From the IMG/VR virus record IMGVR_UViG_3300037483_001670, positions 1 to 64,000 of that record: DNA of 64,000 nt, one strand, 5' to 3'. Each line of letters opens with the position of its first letter. Position 1 is the first letter of the stretch. A program made the translations under genes and the position numbers. This document shows positions 7,360 through 64,000 of this stretch, one piece after another. The notes under the pieces were generated by a model. It saw nothing but the letters and a program-made list of their open reading frames with translations, ran no database searches and had not been told where the DNA came from. The stretch is from a virus.

Positions 7360-8051
7360 ACCTGGTGAACCTCCTCGACGAAATCACCTTCTGGTCGCGG
7401 CAGCTCTCGGAGCACGCGCTGTTCCTGCATCTCGGGCTCGACCATCCCGGGATGAAGGCGCAGGCGTTCGCCCTGCACCGCCAGTGGGAAGCGTTTCGCG
7501 CAGAGCTCGGGCAGTTGACGGCGAACGAGGGGCCTGTGGCGCGGGATCGCGCCATCGTGCTCGCGATGGATCTGCGCGCGCTGAAGCTCGAGGTCTTCAA
7601 CACCCAGAAGACCGGCACGTGGCTCGGATGGCTCTTCCCGACGTTCGTCGACCACATGCGGCGCGAGCTCGACTACTTCATCGGCAAGATCACGGGCAAC
7701 CTCACCGACATGAACCAAGAGGCTTGCGTCTGGATGCGTTTCATGGCCGAGCACGCGTCTTTCGCGGCCCACCTCCTCGACCCGGAGGAAGTGCCGCTGA
7801 TCAAGCAGGCGGCGCGGCTCACGCACGACTTTCTGCGGATCGAGGATGGGTGCGGCAAGGTCACGTTGCCGTCGCTCCTCGAGCTCGGAAGGCGGTCGGG
7901 GCGCGAGCTCGACGAGTATTTTCAGCGGTCCGGCATTGGCACTGCGAAGGTGCGGTCGGTCATCCATCCGGTGCTCGCCGAGCACGTCGTCCGTGAGGGG
8001 ACGCGGTTCGTGCAGACGCTCGACCGGATGATGCCGAGGACGGTGGGCTGA
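7356..8051 (+). CDS. DUF2935-domain protein (two repeats)
   Basis: FWSRQLSEHALFL and WMRFMAEHASFAAHLLDPEE motifs; HVVREGTRF C-terminus. Confidence 0.8.
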   Translation: MNLVNLLDEITFWSRQLSEHALFLHLGLDHPGMKAQAFALHRQWEAFRAELGQLTANEGPVARDRAIVLAMDLRALKLEVFNTQKTGTWLGWLFPTFVDHMRRELDYFIGKITGNLTDMNQEACVWMRFMAEHASFAAHLLDPEEVPLIKQAARLTHDFLRIEDGCGKVTLPSLLELGRRSGRELDEYFQRSGIGTAKVRSVIHPVLAEHVVREGTRFVQTLDRMMPRTVG

Positions 8052-9793
8052 TGAGCTACGCAGCGTTCGGGCTCGACATCCAGGCGAACTTCGTCGCCGC
8101 CGCGGCTGAGGCGAAGACGCAGTCTCGCAGCGTGGCCGTTGACCGTGGCGTGCCGGCCGTGGTCTTCGACGCGTTCGATGACATCGCGGTGCGGGGGGCG
8201 GACCCTCAGACGGTGCTGCGGACGCGAGGGATCGATACCGCCCGCAGCCTGCTCTCGCAAAACGCGGCGCAGTTTTCGAAGACGACCGGCGTGCCGGCAG
8301 CCGCCATCGACGCGCTCCTGGAGGGCCTCCAAAGCGGTGACATCAAGAAGACCGCGCTCGACTCGGCGGCCATCATAGGAGGCGCCCTTGGGACAGCCGC
8401 GTGCGGGCCAGCGTGCGGAATGGTCGTGTCGATGGTCGCGACAGGGCTCGTGCAGGCGGTCGACAACGTTGCCCACGTGTGGATTCTCGGCGACTGGGAT
8501 CGGGACCGGCGCGCCGAAAATGAGCGCATGTACCGCCAAAACATCCAGGCGATCCAGGAGACGAGCAAGATCGTCAAGCAGTACAACAAGCTCGAGCTCG
8601 GCATCGTCTACGCTGCCGAGCTCGGGCCGGCGCGCACGTACAACGATCTGTTGGGGCTGAAGGTCACCATTCAGGTCGAGCAAGTGGTGGCCGCTGTGAT
8701 GCAATGGTGGGTGTTCGTCAACCTGCCGCAGTCGGCGCCCCCGTGGAGTAAGGATCTCACGCCGTACAAGGGACTTCTCTACGATGGCGGTTACACGCCC
8801 GACATGGCGAAGCGGGCCGACGCGGCCAACAAAGTGGCGTCGCAGGAGAACAGCATCGTCTATGCCACGCTCGGCAACATTTCGCGTCAATCGTTCGCTG
8901 ATCAGAACGGTGGATTGCGGGTCGAGGACACGGTGCTGCTCGAGGTCCGCAAGGCGTTCGTTGATGCGGTCAAAAAGGCGGTGGACGCGAAGTACCCTGG
9001 GCTCTGGGACCGGAACAAGACCGAGTCGATGTTCTACGAGCGTCTCGAGAAGTGGGTGGTATCGGAAAATTCGGGCCAAGGCTTCCCGGGTGGCGGCACG
9101 AACCCGAGCCTCGTGCCCGCCGCGGAAAACCGAGCCAACCTGTTTTGCAGCTGGAGCGATGCGGACTTAAATCAGATCGCCGGAGCTACCGATGCCAAGG
9201 GTGGCGAGTACCGGTGCGATCGGATTTATGGCGACGCTGCCCGGCCGGCCAACCTCGCCGATTGGCAGTGGTCAACGCCCGGGTACATCCCTCCTGCATT
9301 TGCCGACAACCGCTACGGAACGCCCTGCTGGCCGAACTTCTGCGGACCGTCGAATCCGAGAGATCCGTGCTTTGGCGGCCCGGCGCTGCTCCGTGCGTGG
9401 CGCTGCCATCTGCCGCGCCACTACGACTACATCGCGACGAACGCTGGCGACCTGGCGCAGCGCTGGCTCAAGGTGGCGACGCGCGACATTTCGATCCTCA
9501 CGATTTCCGATCAGATGAGGAAGGCCGCGCAGGATGCTACGAAAGCGGCGAGCTTGGCAGCCGCCACGGCGCTGATGCAGCAGAAGCCGGCGACGACGGT
9601 CGCTGCGGTTGCGACGGTCGCTGCCGAGAAGACGATTTCGGCGCAGGTGTCGGCATGGGGGAAGATGCGCGACGCGTTCACCGGCAAGAGCCTTTCGCCG
9701 ACGCAGAAAGCGCTCGCGATCAGCGGCGTCGGACTACTCGGCGCTGCGGCAGTGTTCCTCTTCGCCCCCGCTCCCGCCGCCAAGAGCGCTTGA
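8051..9793 (+). CDS. Large membrane-anchored protein, 580 aa; putative virion protein
   Basis: MSYAAFGLD start; Cys/Trp-rich central part; C-terminal TM ALAISGVGLLGAAAVFLFAP. Confidence 0.8.
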   Translation: MSYAAFGLDIQANFVAAAAEAKTQSRSVAVDRGVPAVVFDAFDDIAVRGADPQTVLRTRGIDTARSLLSQNAAQFSKTTGVPAAAIDALLEGLQSGDIKKTALDSAAIIGGALGTAACGPACGMVVSMVATGLVQAVDNVAHVWILGDWDRDRRAENERMYRQNIQAIQETSKIVKQYNKLELGIVYAAELGPARTYNDLLGLKVTIQVEQVVAAVMQWWVFVNLPQSAPPWSKDLTPYKGLLYDGGYTPDMAKRADAANKVASQENSIVYATLGNISRQSFADQNGGLRVEDTVLLEVRKAFVDAVKKAVDAKYPGLWDRNKTESMFYERLEKWVVSENSGQGFPGGGTNPSLVPAAENRANLFCSWSDADLNQIAGATDAKGGEYRCDRIYGDAARPANLADWQWSTPGYIPPAFADNRYGTPCWPNFCGPSNPRDPCFGGPALLRAWRCHLPRHYDYIATNAGDLAQRWLKVATRDISILTISDQMRKAAQDATKAASLAAATALMQQKPATTVAAVATVAAEKTISAQVSAWGKMRDAFTGKSLSPTQKALAISGVGLLGAAAVFLFAPAPAAKSA

Positions 9794-9979
9794 GAGCTCC
9801 GCGGTGTCGTAGTCGACGCTCACGATGCGACGGGCAGCGAAGCGCTTTCCGCAGTCGTCGCAGTCGACTTCGGTGTCTTCGTTGCCCGGGCGAAAGAACT
9901 CGTCGGGATCGCCGTGGCGATGCCCGCAGTACGGGCAGACGAGCGCAGAGTTATCGTAGGTTCGTTCAGCTTTCGGCAT
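9734..9979 (-). CDS. Small zinc-ribbon protein
   Basis: CPYCGH...CDDCGKRF; converges on and overlaps the end of 8051..9793. Confidence 0.65.
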   Translation of the reverse strand: MPKAERTYDNSALVCPYCGHRHGDPDEFFRPGNEDTEVDCDDCGKRFAARRIVSVDYDTAELSSALGGGSGGEEEHCRSAE

Positions 9980-10019
9980 CGACTACTTTTGTGTCCGAGG
10001 CGACTACTTGAGTGTCCGA
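9980..10019. repeat. 19-bp tandem direct repeat CGACTACTT(TT/GA)GTGTCCGA x2
   Basis: Copies at 9980..9998 and 10001..10019, 17/19 identical, directly upstream of the minus-strand zinc-ribbon gene. Confidence 0.8.
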
Positions 10020-10025
10020 CGGTGG

Positions 10026-10106
10026 CTCCAAAGTCTCCCACGAATTGCTCCGACTTCCTCCAGCTCCCAATCCGTTCCAGACGCGCCCATCCTCCAGCTT
10101 CCACGC
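10026..10106 (-). repeat. Three orphan degenerate units of the CRISPR repeat
   Basis: Minus strand reads GCGTGGAAGCTGGAGG, GTCTGGAACGGATTGGGAGCTGGAGG and GTCGGAGCAATTCGTGGGAGACTTTGGAG; array repeat is GTCGGAACG...GTGGGAGTTGGAGG. Confidence 0.7.
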
Positions 10107-10191
10107 CTTTTCCCCCACTAGCCTGCGTGCCCCGAATTGTCACCGGACAATGCGCCAACTCGGGTGTTGACTCGCTGCACTACGTTGCTGC

Positions 10192-10845
10192 ATGCTGCAA
10201 TATGTGACAACCGACTCCACGCCACCGGCTGAACCGACCGAAGCTGTTTCGACGATCGCAGAGCCGTCCGCGACTTACGGCGGTTTCCCGGCGGATGTCT
10301 TCGTCAAAGGCGGTACGACCACGATGCGCCACGACATGATGGTGCAGGAGCAGGAGGCGGATGCGGAGCGCCGCCGCGATCTGCTCGACAAGGAGCGCCA
10401 GATTGCCTCGCTGCCGTTCGAGCAGGGAGGGGGGCGCCTCTACAACAACTACCTGACGCCGAACCCGGAAGGGCTCCCTATGGAGAAGGCGAAGGTGCTG
10501 CTCCAGTACCTCACGCCGTCCGGGGATGTCGAGTACAACAAGGGCAAGCCGCTCAAGTGCCTCGCCGACGTGCTGGTCGGTCTCGATCCGGCGATGCCGA
10601 CCGAGCTCACGCTCGTTCTCGTCTGCCCGAAGTGCGAAACAAAAATGCCGCAAGGGCAGTGTCAGATCCAGATCCGACAGTCGAACCGGCGCTGGGAGCT
10701 CGACCAGCGGACGGCCGGCGAGCTGATCGTGTTCGAGGGCAAGCCCTTTCGATCGGCGGGCACCGTGATGGAATCGGAAAAATTCACGTGCGGTCGGTGC
10801 ACGTGGACGGCGCACATCGACAAGAATAGGGTGTGGCCCGAGTAG
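10192..10845 (+). CDS. Hypothetical zinc-binding protein; start uncertain
   Basis: CPKC and CGRC pairs; typical codon usage from about 10250 onward. Confidence 0.7.
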   Translation: MLQYVTTDSTPPAEPTEAVSTIAEPSATYGGFPADVFVKGGTTTMRHDMMVQEQEADAERRRDLLDKERQIASLPFEQGGGRLYNNYLTPNPEGLPMEKAKVLLQYLTPSGDVEYNKGKPLKCLADVLVGLDPAMPTELTLVLVCPKCETKMPQGQCQIQIRQSNRRWELDQRTAGELIVFEGKPFRSAGTVMESEKFTCGRCTWTAHIDKNRVWPE

Positions 10846-59198: not shown

Positions 59199-59612
59199 AT
59201 GACGTTCGACCCCGCGGTGCACTTCCAGATCGCCGACGACCCGCGCAAGGTGGCGCTCCTCTTGGACCCGGTCGCGACCGATCCGAAACCGACAACGATT
59301 GCGGAGCTGCTCGAGTTCGGGGAAGACACGATCGTCGTGGGCACGCATTTCTCCGACGACATCTTTCGCACCACGTTCGATCGGTTTACCGGGCTCGCGC
59401 TCGACAATGGGCGACTGAAGACCAACACGATTCCGCCGAAGGAGCTCGCTCGCCTCGAGCGCTTTGCGGCCGAAGGGGCGTACAAGACGAGGCCAGCCGA
59501 GTGGGGCCAAGTGACTCCGGCAGCAGCGACACCGGCCCAGGTCCCGGTTCACGCGTCTGCTCCTGCTCCGGTGGCAGCCGAGGCAGCGTTCGATCCCGAT
59601 GCGTTCCTGTGA
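59199..59612 (+). CDS. Hypothetical protein
   Basis: ORF directly after the operator motif. Confidence 0.65.
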   Translation: MTFDPAVHFQIADDPRKVALLLDPVATDPKPTTIAELLEFGEDTIVVGTHFSDDIFRTTFDRFTGLALDNGRLKTNTIPPKELARLERFAAEGAYKTRPAEWGQVTPAAATPAQVPVHASAPAPVAAEAAFDPDAFL

Positions 59613-60034
59613 GTGAGAGCGGGGAGGCGCTCGCGGTAGCGTTCGAGCCGCCACCGGCCGATGGGCCACCGCTTGCGTCGACCGCTCTGGTCTGCGATCA
59701 CTGCGGTGCGCCTTGCAACATGGCCGAGTACGTGACCGAGCACGTGACGCGCGTCGTGGACGGGTGGGCGGCGCCCGGCGGCCTCGGACCGGAGAAGCTG
59801 ACGCGCAAGGAGCTCCTGGTCACGCATCTTTTGCTGCGAGGCTACATGGTCGACGAGCTCGCGACCGTGTTGGGTAACACGACGAAAACGGTGAAGTGCC
59901 ACATCACGTCGATCTATCGGAAGCTCGGCATTCAGGCTCGCCATGAGCTCTTCGCGCGAGTCTTCGGGTTCGACGACATGCCGATGCCGGAGAGCGCGTG
60001 GCAGAACCAAAACCCGCGCTGTCCGCAGGTCTGA
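59609..60034 (+). CDS. LuxR/NarL-type HTH regulator with N-terminal CxxC
   Basis: LTRKELLVTHLLLRGY..ELATVLGNTTKTVKCHITSIYRKLGI. Confidence 0.85.
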   Translation: MSESGEALAVAFEPPPADGPPLASTALVCDHCGAPCNMAEYVTEHVTRVVDGWAAPGGLGPEKLTRKELLVTHLLLRGYMVDELATVLGNTTKTVKCHITSIYRKLGIQARHELFARVFGFDDMPMPESAWQNQNPRCPQV

Positions 60035-60082: not shown

Positions 60083-60380
60083 ATGTCAAATCGTCGAACA
60101 GCGGTAGCAAGGTCCGCGTCTCTGCCGTACGGGTCGACTCCACGACCCTTAGGCGACGAAGCTGGGGAACATGACGGCCCTCGGGCCGAGGAAGCAAGCT
60201 CGCCAGCGCTCGCTATAAAGTCGCACGTTGGTGCATCTGTCCCAACCTTCCCCCTCGTGATTGATTCGAAAGAACTGATCGTCGGTCTTGGGGACAACCG
60301 TGGCCAGGTGCTCGAGGGCCCCACGCTCTCGAATCAACCAACAAGTGACACTCCCACGCACCCTCCCGCAAGGGAGGAGG
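60083..60380 (+). ncRNA. Candidate tracrRNA-like structured RNA overlapping the atypical 5' part of the effector ORF
   Basis: Hairpins GGGTCG-ACTCCA-CGACCC, GGCCC-TC-GGGCC and CCTCCC-GCAA-GGGAGG; ACTCCCACGCA is complementary to repeat TGCAGTGGGAGT with one bulge. Confidence 0.45.
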
Positions 60381-61873
60381 GCGGAGATGCGGACCTTGCT
60401 GCTGCTGTTCCGGGCGCCGAGCCGGCGCCTGAGTTTCGGGTCACGCGCAACACGACGCGGTTCGAGATCGATCTGCGCGCGATGTCCGATCGTCTCAACG
60501 CGAAGCGAGAGAAGGGCCAGAAGCGCGTCATGGGGCCCGAAGAGAAGGAGCTCCGCGGTGCGCTCGAGAACGTGGCGCGGCTTGCGACGACGGCGCGCAA
60601 CGTGGCGATGCGCGCGAACGAGCGACGGGACGCCGAGGCGCTCGATCGCTACTTGCTCGAGCATGGGGCGATGCCGCGGAAGATGGCCGGCATCTTTGCC
60701 CCGGTCCGGAAGTCGGGCGTCGACACCGGCGGGCACGAGGTTTACTCCTACCCGCTGATGCGCCGGGCGTGCCCCGAGCTCTCGACCAACATGGTGGCCA
60801 CGCTCCAGAAGGACGTGGACGGCAAGTGGGTGCAGGAGCGCTACGACGTGCTCGTGCGGCAGACGCGCAGCCGGCCGCACTTCAAGATGGGGCAGCCGTT
60901 CCCGATCCCGGCGGCCTCGCTCAATCTCAAGGCGGCGGGCGATTCCCTGCTCTTGTCGATGGCGTTCTACTCGCAGTCGCACGAGGGGACTCGTCGGTTC
61001 ACGGTGCCGATGCGTCCGCGGGACGACCACCAGACGAACATCCTGGCGCGCATCGCGTCGGGCGAGTGGAAGCACGGCCAGGCCGTCTTCGAGCAGGACC
61101 GACTCCGTCCGTGGAAATGGTACGTGCGGCTCGCGTACAAGCGGCTCATCCCGAAGGCCCGGCAAGGGATCGCGGCCGGCATCAACCGCGGCTGCCGGGC
61201 GATGATCGCGGCGTGGACCGAGACCGGCGAGGCGTGGATCTACGACGGCCAGGACATCGAGGCCTACCTGAAGCAGATGCAGGCGAGGCGTCGTCGGTTC
61301 CAGAACGCGTCGAAGGCGTCGGGCCGGCACGGCCATGGTCGAGCTCGCATGCTCCGGCCGACGGAGGCGCTCGAGGGCAAGGCGCAGCGCTACCGGCAGA
61401 CGCGCTGCCAGGTCATCGCCCGCCGCCTCGCGCGCTGGCTTTTCGAGCGGCACGTCAACATCGTCTACATCGAGGACTTCGGCGGCATCCGCGACGGCTT
61501 GCCCGAGAACCTCGAAGGCGGCAAGTACGTTTGGGACCGCATCCAGGAGTGGCCGTATTCCCAGCTCCAGATGCGTCTCGTGGCGTGTCTCGAGGAGCTC
61601 GGCATCGAGGCCACGTCGGTCAGCGCGTCGTACATTTCGCAGACGTGTCCCGCGTGCGGACACACCGCGGAAGCGAACCGCGATTGGAAGTTCTGGCGGT
61701 TCAAGTGTACCGCGCCGGGCTGCAAGTATCGGCGGCACCTCGACGTGGCGGCCGCGCAAAACGTTTGCGCGAGAGGCAAGGCAACGACGGCGGAAGGGGT
61801 CAGCGAAAACGCGGCGTTGCCGAACGGCCCGAAGGGCTCGAAGCGAACCGCTCGCAAACCTAGGCGTAAGTAG
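60083..61873 (+). CDS. cas12: Compact TnpB/Cas12f-like type V effector with RuvC-I D-to-N substitution; true start uncertain, core about 480 aa
   Basis: AAGINRG (RuvC-I), VYIEDF (RuvC-II), SQTCPACGH..FKCTAPGC zinc finger, HLDVAAAQNV (RuvC-III); stop codon 28 bp before the array. Confidence 0.88.
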   Translation: MSNRRTAVARSASLPYGSTPRPLGDEAGEHDGPRAEEASSPALAIKSHVGASVPTFPLVIDSKELIVGLGDNRGQVLEGPTLSNQPTSDTPTHPPAREEGGDADLAAAVPGAEPAPEFRVTRNTTRFEIDLRAMSDRLNAKREKGQKRVMGPEEKELRGALENVARLATTARNVAMRANERRDAEALDRYLLEHGAMPRKMAGIFAPVRKSGVDTGGHEVYSYPLMRRACPELSTNMVATLQKDVDGKWVQERYDVLVRQTRSRPHFKMGQPFPIPAASLNLKAAGDSLLLSMAFYSQSHEGTRRFTVPMRPRDDHQTNILARIASGEWKHGQAVFEQDRLRPWKWYVRLAYKRLIPKARQGIAAGINRGCRAMIAAWTETGEAWIYDGQDIEAYLKQMQARRRRFQNASKASGRHGHGRARMLRPTEALEGKAQRYRQTRCQVIARRLARWLFERHVNIVYIEDFGGIRDGLPENLEGGKYVWDRIQEWPYSQLQMRLVACLEELGIEATSVSASYISQTCPACGHTAEANRDWKFWRFKCTAPGCKYRRHLDVAAAQNVCARGKATTAEGVSENAALPNGPKGSKRTARKPRRK

Positions 61874-61901: not shown

Positions 61902-62824
61902 GTCGGAACGAGTGAAGAATGCAGTGGGAGTTGGAGGAGCATCATCCAAAGCGCCAAGATCGATTGGGCCGATCTGTCGGAACGAGTGAAGAATGCAGTG
62001 GGAGTTGGAGGTTAATCCGCACTTACGCCCGTCGACGACCGATGGGCCGCGTCGGAACGAGTGAAGAATGCAGTGGGAGTTGGAGGTTGGAAGTCGGCGC
62101 TCTTCACGTCGATTCCAGCGGTAGGTCGGAACGAGTGAAGAATGCAGTGGGAGTTGGAGGAACCACCCCAACGACGACGTCGACTTTTCGATCAAGGTCG
62201 GAACGAGTGAAGAATGCAGTGGGAGTTGGAGGGTGCACGCGGTCTCGAAACATATGAATCGCACTTCGGCGGTCGGAACGAGTGAAGAATGCAGTGGGAG
62301 TTGGAGGGCGTCCCGATACGTCACCACGATCGAACTCTGCGCCGTCGGAACGAGTGAAGAATGCAGTGGGAGTTGGAGGAACATAGCGACGCGCGCAAAC
62401 TACGGTTGCATGCTCGCGTGTCGGAACGAGTGAAGAATGCAGTGGGAGTTGGAGGCAGATCCAGCAGTCGAAGACTAAGACACCTGTTGAGATGGTCGGA
62501 ACGAGTGAAGAATGCAGTGGGAGTTGGAGGGACGTTGCTCGGGGCTGCTCTCGACGCACAGGGCGTCGGAACGAGTGAAGAATGCAGTGGGAGTTGGAGG
62601 CCGGTGATGCGTGAGCGGCCGCTCGGCTCGTGCGAGGTCGGAACGAGTGAAGAATGCAGTGGGAGTTGGAGGCGTATGAGAGAAATACAACCGCACCGCG
62701 CCAAACCCAGGTTCGTCGGAACGAGTGAAGAATGCAGTGGGAGTTGGAGGTTGGCACGGGGCTTATCGTCGTCCGACGCTTCGCGGCGGTCGGAACGAGT
62801 GAAGAATGCAGTGGGAGTTGGAGG
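61902..62824 (+). CRISPR. CRISPR array: 13 identical 36-bp repeats GTCGGAACGAGTGAAGAATGCAGTGGGAGTTGGAGG and 12 unique spacers of 34-42 bp
   Basis: Repeats start at 61902, 61976, 62051, 62125, 62197, 62272, 62344, 62420, 62495, 62565, 62637, 62715 and 62789. Orientation inferred from decay at the distal end. Confidence 0.98.
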
Positions 62825-62864
62825 CTAGAAGGCCAAGTGGATCCCCGCCCGTAGCGCGCGTAGG

Positions 62865-63191
62865 GTCGGAGCGAAGCGCAGTGGAAGTTTGGAGGAACGC
62901 TGGTAACCATCTCGCTGTTGTTACCAACTTTGCCGGAGCGAGCGCAAAAACGCAGTGGAAGTTGGAGGATGGGCTGCCTGCCGTGAGCTGATTAGCTGGC
63001 CCGCGGGCCCGGAACGAGTGAAGAATGCAGTGGGAGTTGGAGGCGGCAGCATTCACCCTATTGACGACGTGAGTGCCCGACGGAAATGAGCGAAGATGTT
63101 GTGGGAGTTTGGAGGTCCGGTTCGATACGTGTCGTTCGATGGAGCTGGAGGTCAAACGGAGGTCGCGAAAAGAGGCAGTGGGAGTTGGAGG
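62865..63191 (+). CRISPR. Degenerate trailer of the array, about 6 units
   Basis: Decayed repeats at 62865..62895 and 62932..62968, near-perfect at 63008..63043, remnants ending 63115, 63151 and 63191. Confidence 0.85.
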
Positions 63192-63642: not shown

Positions 63643-63660
63643 TGGAATTGGTGGCTGGCA

Positions 63661-63927
63661 GCGTGGGAGTTTTGGAGGCGCATGATGGCGAACCCGTAGC
63701 AGTTGCGTCGGCTGTGAAGAATGGAAGCGTGGAAGCTGGAGGTCGGGACTTTCTCGAGGGTTTGGGAGTTGGAGGCATGTAGTCGTCGATTACCGCGTGG
63801 GAAGTTGGAGGCATATACTCTCGCGTGCCGGCGGGAGCGGAGGAACCGTGGACCATTGGTGGTTCCGCCAGGGTGCGTGAAGCTGGAGGCAATGAGGTCG
63901 AAATCGGAAGGCTGGGAGCCATGGAGG
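63661..63927 (+). repeat. Second cluster of about 6 degenerate CRISPR-repeat units
   Basis: E.g. GTCGGCTGTGAAGAATGGAAGCGTGGAAGCTGGAGG (63707..63742), TGGGAGTTGGAGG (63763..63775), GCGTGGGAAGTTGGAGG (63795..63811). Confidence 0.8.
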
Positions 63928-64000
63928 AACGAGGGCGTCCGGCTGCGTGTTGCGTCTGCCAACGTACGCAGCACGACGACGGGTCGAGCGTGACGTGGAA

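Follow-up and report, generated by a model that had tools for sequence, protein, structure and literature searches.

Shortened copies of a viral Cas12f-type CRISPR repeat far from their array: a possible satellite mini-array for a nuclease-dead effector

In type V-F systems the Cas12f effector uses a guide located 3' of the repeat, and the unstructured repeat pairs in trans with a separate scaffold RNA, the tracrRNA, via two separate stretches. The viral locus described here shares these traits, with a Cas12f-like effector and a tracr-like RNA. It differs in that the RuvC-I aspartate is replaced by asparagine, the functional part of the repeat has a length of only about 15 nt, repeat units are found outside the array at distances of up to 52 kb, and no adaptation genes were seen near the locus. 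A cluster of CRISPR-associated nuclease-dead Cas12f proteins with 'discontinuous arrays' has recently been reported (Hoffmann et al., Nature 2026, PMC13472631). There, as here, dead Cas12f homologues lie by arrays with interspersed repeat-derived guide modules, and repression by binding was proposed for them. In contrast to that cluster, which is bacterial and was described as C-terminally truncated, the present protein is viral and of full length with a point change, and its units are dispersed across the genome. Moreover, the sigma-E-linked branch of the cluster uses single guide RNAs without tracrRNA, whereas a tracr-like RNA is present here. Stand-alone degenerate repeat-like sequences outside the main array, from which crRNA-like RNAs are produced, are also known as CreA/CreR, scaRNA and solitary repeat units (10.1101/2023.03.03.530964). 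The known regulatory mini-arrays and crRNA-like RNAs sit inside cas loci and have spacers that partly match a promoter; type V-F was outside the coverage of this survey by Shmakov et al. (10.1101/2023.03.03.530964). Unlike CreA/CreR and scaRNA, the site studied here is 50 kb from cas12f and no promoter match was found. Finally, viral genomes may carry mini-arrays or repeat mimics such as the Racrs, phage RNA anti-CRISPRs (PMC10651486), but these mimic host repeats to block or exploit host Cas proteins, whereas effector, tracr-like RNA and array are in this case the virus's own. Racrs and solitary repeats are, in addition, near full-length repeat copies, and only the 3' 13–16 of 36 nt are kept here. 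Judged by these analogies, the locus is best regarded as a variant of the known mini-arrays, solitary repeat units, crRNA-like regulators, Racrs and dead Cas12f cluster, and not as a separate kind.

The virus record comprises 182,423 bp with 64.7% GC; the window, i.e. the whole stretch of DNA that was analyzed, is its first 64 kb. The following elements make up the CRISPR locus, where box 1 and box 2 are two parts of the 3' end of the repeat and box 2 is defined as the last five or six bases before the spacer:

60083–61873, plus strand: nuclease-dead Cas12f-like gene (longest ORF 596 codons; the likely true start is the ATG at 60387)
60131–60389, plus strand: tracr-like scaffold RNA at the 5' edge of the Cas12f gene
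60131–60148, plus strand: tracr hairpin 1, with loop ACTCCA at 60137–60142
60350–60359, plus strand: tracr anti-repeat, a single-stranded stretch pairing with box 1
60361–60377, plus strand: tetraloop-capped GNRA hairpin of the tracr-like RNA
61902–63191, plus strand: main CRISPR array following the Cas12f-like ORF, with a 36-nt repeat in 13 perfect copies plus degenerate ones

The Cas12f-like product has a Pfam Cas12f1-like TNB domain, and its best PDB matches are Cas12f proteins (E 1e-23). Its RuvC-I motif reads GINRG instead of GIDLG, and this Asp-to-Asn change is nearly invariant in an alignment of 16 homologues, so that the term 'dead Cas12' used in the preliminary description of this DNA is a fair one. 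A whole-repeat duplex scan of the genome gave a background too high, at 65% GC, to single out the anti-repeat, which was located by comparing the loci of relatives. The scaffold copy of the window has about 118 extra nt between its long stem and the anti-repeat. Both the longest Cas12f ORF and the 538-aa database gene call include the scaffold, which ends at the ATG at 60387, where the genes of several relatives begin. No family reached the Rfam gathering score over the whole window. Directly upstream of the Cas12f locus, at 59501–60034, a 177-aa protein with a LuxR/GerE-type HTH domain and a weak phrog 'sigma factor' match is encoded; this neighbour is absent from the relatives' loci examined.

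The short repeat units that are the subject of this study lie about 50 kb from this locus, in a 398-nt gap (9794–10191) between two plus-strand genes:

8051–9793, plus strand: 580-aa gene (strand from third-position GC)
9734–9979, minus strand: 81-aa zinc-ribbon gene, antisense to the surrounding plus-strand operon
9980–10020, minus strand: 21-nt tandem repeat in two copies, TCGGACAC-NN-AAGTAGTCG, ending exactly at the zinc-ribbon ATG at 9979
10091–10106, minus strand: short repeat unit 1, GCGTGGAAGCTGGAGG, made of box 1 (GCGTGGAAGC), box 2 (TGGAG) and G, identical to 63727–63742
10070–10090, minus strand: variable segment 1, 21 nt, a possible short guide, or else a decayed remnant of the 5' part of the following repeat
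10057–10069, minus strand: short repeat unit 2, TGGGAGCTGGAGG, an exact match to the repeat-end pattern
10041–10056, minus strand: variable segment 2, 16 nt, between units 2 and 3
10026–10040, minus strand: short repeat unit 3, TGGGAGACTTTGGAG, degenerate, with a 3-nt insertion before TGGAG
10192–10845, plus strand: 217-aa gene (strand from third-position GC)

Sequence comparison confirmed the unit sequences and coordinates that had been reported, the identity with 63727–63742 and the 18/19 match of a 19-mer starting in unit 1 with 62956–62974, as well as the run into a tandem repeat before the ATG, which is a 21-nt repeat extending from 10020 to 9980. This tandem repeat is found nowhere else in the genome and might serve as an operator or in translation. 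The cluster itself lies between genes and shares the strand of the zinc-ribbon ORF, its units being 47–127 nt upstream of the start codon. Unit spacing is 34 and 31 nt, which fits the period of the short-unit mini-arrays of the clade, and GTCGGA recurs locally. The 81-aa product matches phrog_6504 (E 2.5e-11), its Pfam zinc-ribbon matches are weak, and its nearest Atlas clusters are viral hypothetical proteins; the ORF was also predicted by an independent gene caller and has a GC3 of 0.77. No Shine-Dalgarno sequence precedes its ATG. A promoter and terminator scan of 9600–10400 returned nothing, including no sigma-70-like promoter upstream of the units and no intrinsic terminator, and a promoter-like TTGACT read from the sequence precedes the plus-strand 217-aa gene. 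The cluster is not a canonical CRISPR array. Such arrays have at least three near-identical direct repeats of about 23–50 nt, unique spacers of about repeat length and adjacent cas genes; here conservation is limited to 13–16 nt in each unit, the variable segments measure 21 and 16 nt and cas12f is 50 kb away. Nor is it a tracrRNA, in which an anti-repeat is joined to a structured scaffold, since the scaffold is absent at 10 kb.

The distribution of the motif in the genome is not random. In the window, the repeat-end pattern TGGRAGYTGGAGG was matched 20 times, versus 0.00 in 100 shuffles. The whole genome contains 21, confined to the array, to a trail at 63.65–64.23 kb and to 10057–10069 and 10091–10103 on the minus strand. 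A relaxed, indel-tolerant pattern allowing 1–5 inserted bases gave 27 matches versus 0–3 in ten Markov controls, with same-strand clusters in none of six controls. Chance is thus excluded by both kinds of control, and the genome scan with shuffled controls that had been suggested earlier yields matches far above background (21 vs 0). Besides the 10-kb cluster, two groups of short units lie outside the array:

63650–64000, continuing to 64231 past the window, plus strand: trail of short units containing two paralogous three-unit cassettes
116701–116805 of the genome, outside the window, minus strand: second remote cluster of 3–4 short units, found by the relaxed pattern scan

The 116.7-kb cluster is located between a 180-aa gene and tRNA-Ser(UGA), directly upstream of the tRNA, and its last unit overlaps the 5' end of the latter. 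This tRNA gene is one of 38 viral tRNA genes at 113.7–131.3 kb, all on the minus strand. Like the 10-kb cluster, the second cluster is intergenic and co-oriented with the next gene; one of its inter-unit gaps is just 5 nt. The 10-kb site is remote, about 52 kb from the array, as had been noted, but it is not the sole orphan. An 84-codon ORF, from 63921 in the window to 64175 in the genome, begins within one of the short units of the trail and reaches into the second trail cassette, where it ends. It contains four CxxC-type pairs, but its GC3 is just 0.69 and its coding status is uncertain; it has no similarity to the 81-aa zinc-ribbon protein.

The short units derive from the repeat of the virus itself. 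When all 17 of them were aligned with the repeat, gapped identity was 0.83 for the 3' 16 nt versus 0.51 for random sequence, and 0.58 versus 0.55 for the 5' 20 nt (random 40-mers). Both repeat ends had been thought to be kept; this holds for the 3' end, whereas the 5' end is near background. Three further three-unit cassettes are collinear with the 10-kb cluster: the two of the trail (63700–63815 and 64120–64235) and the 116.7-kb cluster. Compared with the first trail cassette the boxes of the 10-kb cluster are about 91% identical (40/44 positions, hand count on the alignment), while identity in the two segments between them is about 47%, a level that random sequence also attains in such gapped alignments; for variable segment 1 and the matching segment of a trail cassette identity is about 45%. 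This contrast indicates diverged paralogues in which only the boxes were maintained, by selection or gene conversion. Paralogy with the trail is also indicated by an exact 14-mer shared between variable segment 2 plus the first bases of unit 3 and the last trail unit (64208–64221).

What the retained part of the repeat could do is best seen in relatives, whose loci were taken as the regions around effector homologues with 35–54% identity. Six loci (the window, L001, L002, L003, L125 and L140) have a common scaffold immediately upstream of the likely Cas12f start. It opens with hairpin 1, followed by a long stem and a small hairpin; a single-stranded stretch then leads to a last hairpin capped by a tetraloop, which is of GNRA type in most loci. 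RNAalifold on four sequences predicted 30 pairs, 13 of them with compensatory changes. Box 1 is complementary to the anti-repeat of its own genome and changes with it across the six loci:

Window: box 1 ACTCCCAC(GC) with anti-repeat (GC)GTGGGAGT
L001: box 1 ACTCCAAC with anti-repeat GTTGGAGT
L002: box 1 TCCACGAC with anti-repeat GTCGTGGA
L003: box 1 ATCCACTCCG with anti-repeat CGGAGTGGAT
L125: box 1 CCCACGAC with anti-repeat GTCGTGGG
L140: box 1 CCACACAGC with anti-repeat GCTGTGTGG

The loop of hairpin 1 matches box 2 in a similar manner. It is ACTCCA with TGGAG in four loci, but the tail in L003 is CGGAG, with four bases paired. Loop and box 2 co-vary in L002 (ACTCTA with TAGAG), L125 (CCTCCA with TGGAGG) and L140 (ATTCCA with TGGAA). 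It follows from this two-box pairing that the short units, in keeping these 13–16 nt, have retained everything in the repeat that pairs with the tracr-like RNA. In many short units of the window GCG precedes TGGGAG where the canonical repeat has CAG, which lengthens the pairing from 8 to 10 bp.

Three of these loci have no full-length array within 10 kb of the effector gene and carry 19–35 short units each; in L002 and L125 there are about 30–35, with repeats of 15 nt recurring roughly every 30 nt:

L002, 6858–12951: short units GTCGTGGAATAGAGG, period 25–32 nt
L003: short units CGGAGTGGATCGGAGG
L125, 5278–14613: short units GTCGTGGGMTGGAGG, period 27–37 nt

The units occupy five intergenic gaps each in L002 and L125. 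Throughout the three loci, units have the orientation of the genes beside them without exception, and the segments between units are unique. Given that full-length arrays are lacking there, short units must be the working repeats in these loci. L140 and L001 have full arrays with tails of shortened or internally deleted repeats; L140 has the same layout as the window, an array with a short-unit tail, plus two solitary units 5–7 kb away. Dispersal over tens of kb is not general, since two IMG/VR records scanned whole have units only beside the effector gene; in G001 (105 kb, the single relative record that has terminal repeats, CheckV completeness estimate 64%) units occur in its array only. 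No similarity was found among the neighbours of clusters in five loci that would point to a conserved small zinc-binding partner gene. Two gene searches for synteny in distant relatives gave just a 13-residue match and a 1.4-kb fragment, and a scan of IMG/VR with a 14-nt motif gave random single matches. A shared 'leader' motif, TAGTGG, upstream of clusters was rejected, as it mostly corresponds to stop codons of upstream genes.

With this knowledge, the predicted pairing of the three units at 10 kb can be considered. The canonical repeat end forms a predicted duplex of -17.8 kcal/mol with the anti-repeat. Unit 1 has 8/10 pairs with two mismatches (-13.7 kcal/mol, shuffle mean -11.1), unit 2 has six contiguous pairs (-11.5 kcal/mol, shuffle mean -12.0) and unit 3 eight contiguous pairs (-16.9 kcal/mol, shuffle mean -9.7). 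Only unit 3 stands out among them, and its box 2 is displaced by three bases. Box 2 (TGGAG) is present in 3/3 units and complementary to the ACTCCA loop of tracr hairpin 1. The minus-strand RNA of 9975–10191 has less structure than 197/200 shuffles, as expected for repeat pairing in trans, and the plus-strand RNA across the cluster is also poorly structured. The three units are certainly derivatives of the virus's own repeat that belong to its dCas12f system and retain the tracr-pairing boxes. The proposal of a crRNA-like or effector-binding module is, in view of this origin and of the part that was kept, a reasonable reading; the pairing check that accompanied it singled out unit 3 (-16.9 vs -9.7), whereas units 1 and 2 do barely or no better than shuffles. 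The plus strand at 10 kb was also considered as a tracrRNA and rejected: its complementarity to the repeat end arises only from the inversion of the copy, and the real tracr-like RNA is at 60131–60389.

Strain data were available as contigs of a diverged lineage from two sediment runs. A 368-nt contig covers 10038–10407 with 12 substitutions, one of them unlisted and unplaced. Its 154 intergenic bases (10038–10191) have one listed substitution and 1-nt deletions at 10072 and 10145, and the next 216 coding bases have ten substitutions, eight of them at the 72 third-codon positions. The substitution at 10097, G>A on the plus strand, turns the variable Y position of unit 1 into the canonical T. 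Compared with the adjacent gene, the scarcity of changes in 10038–10191 looks like constraint on the units. Another contig of the same run, however, shows no difference over 9670–9820, which is partly plain coding sequence, beside a stretch with 10% divergence. The tract 9670–10191 as a whole is nearly identical in related sediment strains, and flanking coding sequence differs by 5–10%. The quiet 9670–9820 stretch suggests that the low-divergence tract may be a recently exchanged module, i.e. a recombination tract covering the zinc-ribbon module, rather than a mark of unit constraint. Part of the quiet tract is explained by the promoter-like TTGACT of the next gene.

The variable segments of the cassette have no 16-nt match in the genome at up to 2 mismatches. 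Their 11-nt seed matches (157971–157981, 178019) show no extension and no shared PAM or flank. The ten hits, with two sites counted twice, compare with about 6 expected, which is chance level; the sites are inside genes and none is near cas12f. A PAM-proximal spacer match to a promoter, which characterizes regulatory mini-arrays, was not found for the 10-kb cassette. Conversely, no guide from any array or short unit matches the 10-kb region. The idea that the dead Cas12 controls a switch between structural and glycosylation modules at this place finds no support; no guide matches the region, and no target of the segments was found in the genome. Cross-targeting among the viral loci of the relatives was at noise level. 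Elsewhere, the first 16 nt of array spacer 3 (62087–62102) match 159249–159264 on the minus strand exactly, with unrelated following bases. This self-match falls in an 898-aa minus-strand gene of the virion region, and about 0.005 such matches are expected over all guides; it might be a 16-nt site in the virus's own genome at which the dead effector acts as a regulator.

The 10-kb cluster may be a satellite mini-array providing minimal crRNA handles for the dead Cas12f, transcribed together with the zinc-ribbon gene, a reading to which we give about even credence. According to it, three shortened and degenerate copies of the virus's own type V-F-like repeat, each reduced to the 13–16-nt 3' module, would form an unstructured, purine-rich leader on a minus-strand transcript shared with the zinc-ribbon gene. 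Box 1 would pair with the single-stranded anti-repeat of the tracr-like RNA and box 2 (TGGAG) with the hairpin-1 loop, and the paired RNA would then load into dCas12f. This would supply two or three extra crRNA-like RNAs, whose 16–21-nt variable segments could act as short guides for non-cutting DNA binding, and would tie their expression to a transcription unit other than that of the main array. In its favour are the confinement of the motif to the CRISPR region and two remote intergenic clusters, the co-variation of both boxes with the tracr-like RNA in six loci, the maintenance of the boxes among the four cassettes and the relatives that have short units only. Such a reading is weakened by units 1 and 2, which pair with the anti-repeat no or hardly better than shuffles, and by the 5-nt gap at 116.7 kb, too short for a guide. 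The aberrant tail of unit 3, the lack of a target match in the genome, the lack of a predicted promoter and a relative, G001, without remote units weaken it further.

Several of these observations would also fit an inert relic. Recombination would have placed a copy of part of the trail at 10 kb (and at 116.7 kb), perhaps in one inserted cassette with the zinc-ribbon gene, and the copy would have no function of its own. The mosaic identity to trail units, with an exact 16-mer and an exact 14-mer, speaks for it, as do the weak anti-repeat pairing of units 1 and 2, the variable segments for which no target was found, the G001 record devoid of remote units, and a low-divergence tract that spans the whole 9670–10191 module as for a recently exchanged segment. 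Nevertheless, neutral decay would not give boxes at about 91% with segments at background, and in this genome as in L125, L002 and L140 all remote clusters lie between genes, in the orientation of the gene that follows. We consider such a relic unlikely, yet a serious competitor. The units could instead bind the tracr-like RNA and dCas12f without directing them, as a guide-less decoy that titrates the effector, or as a cis-acting leader for processing or masking of the 5' leader of the zinc-ribbon mRNA (and of the tRNA precursor at 116.7 kb). This would account for inter-unit gaps that are short or absent (5 nt at 116.7 kb), for inter-unit segments resembling decayed repeat 5' ends and not independent spacers, and for a cassette 47–127 nt before a start codon without Shine-Dalgarno sequence; Cas-sequestering repeat mimics are known (PMC10651486). 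Yet the only arrays of some relatives use the same geometry with clearly unique spacers, and the small protein by such clusters is not conserved, which makes a decoy or leader quite improbable in our view.

It is also conceivable that the plus strand is the functional one, with read-through from the 580-aa gene giving a C-rich unstructured tract that serves as a Rho-loading site, at which this transcription unit would end, or as an antisense crRNA sponge. The flanking genes are indeed on the plus strand with no intrinsic terminator predicted, the RNA is poorly structured and the promoter-like TTGACT lies before the next gene. This would leave unexplained why the units point the same way as the zinc-ribbon gene, why a sister cluster lies in the minus-strand tRNA operon and why the sequence derives from the repeat, and the complementarity to handles is a trivial consequence of inversion; we give it very little credit. 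That the motif has nothing to do with CRISPR and matches the repeat end by coincidence, being instead a protein-binding site, a promoter or a Shine-Dalgarno-like sequence, might be suggested by the GGAGG in the units, their position upstream of genes and the LuxR-type HTH gene adjoining cas12f. But in six viruses that differ in their flanking genes the partner with which the motif co-varies is an RNA and no protein. The distance of the units to start codons is too great for ribosome-binding sites, one cluster precedes a tRNA, and the HTH neighbour is not conserved. Such a coincidence is hardly to be believed.

If the units are inert, the site does no more than record recombination of the array with other parts of the genome. 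If short units do work, a handle of about 15 nt would suffice for loading a compact Cas12f that is non-cutting by nature, which would be useful for miniature CRISPRi. Standard CRISPR finders, which look for repeats of at least 23 nt, would then overlook the greater part of the guides in these viruses: L125, L002 and L003 seem to have no array, but dozens of units are present in them. A more far-reaching and rather doubtful extension is that the working repeat of the clade has shrunk to a 15-nt two-box handle and that guide modules are deliberately scattered in the leaders of genes and tRNAs, to be made with different (early, late or tRNA) units for timed RNA-guided silencing; new guides would possibly arise by duplication and drift and not by Cas1-Cas2 acquisition. 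Provided that the short units work, guide modules placed in other transcription units would represent a new wiring of RNA-guided regulation into the viral expression programme.
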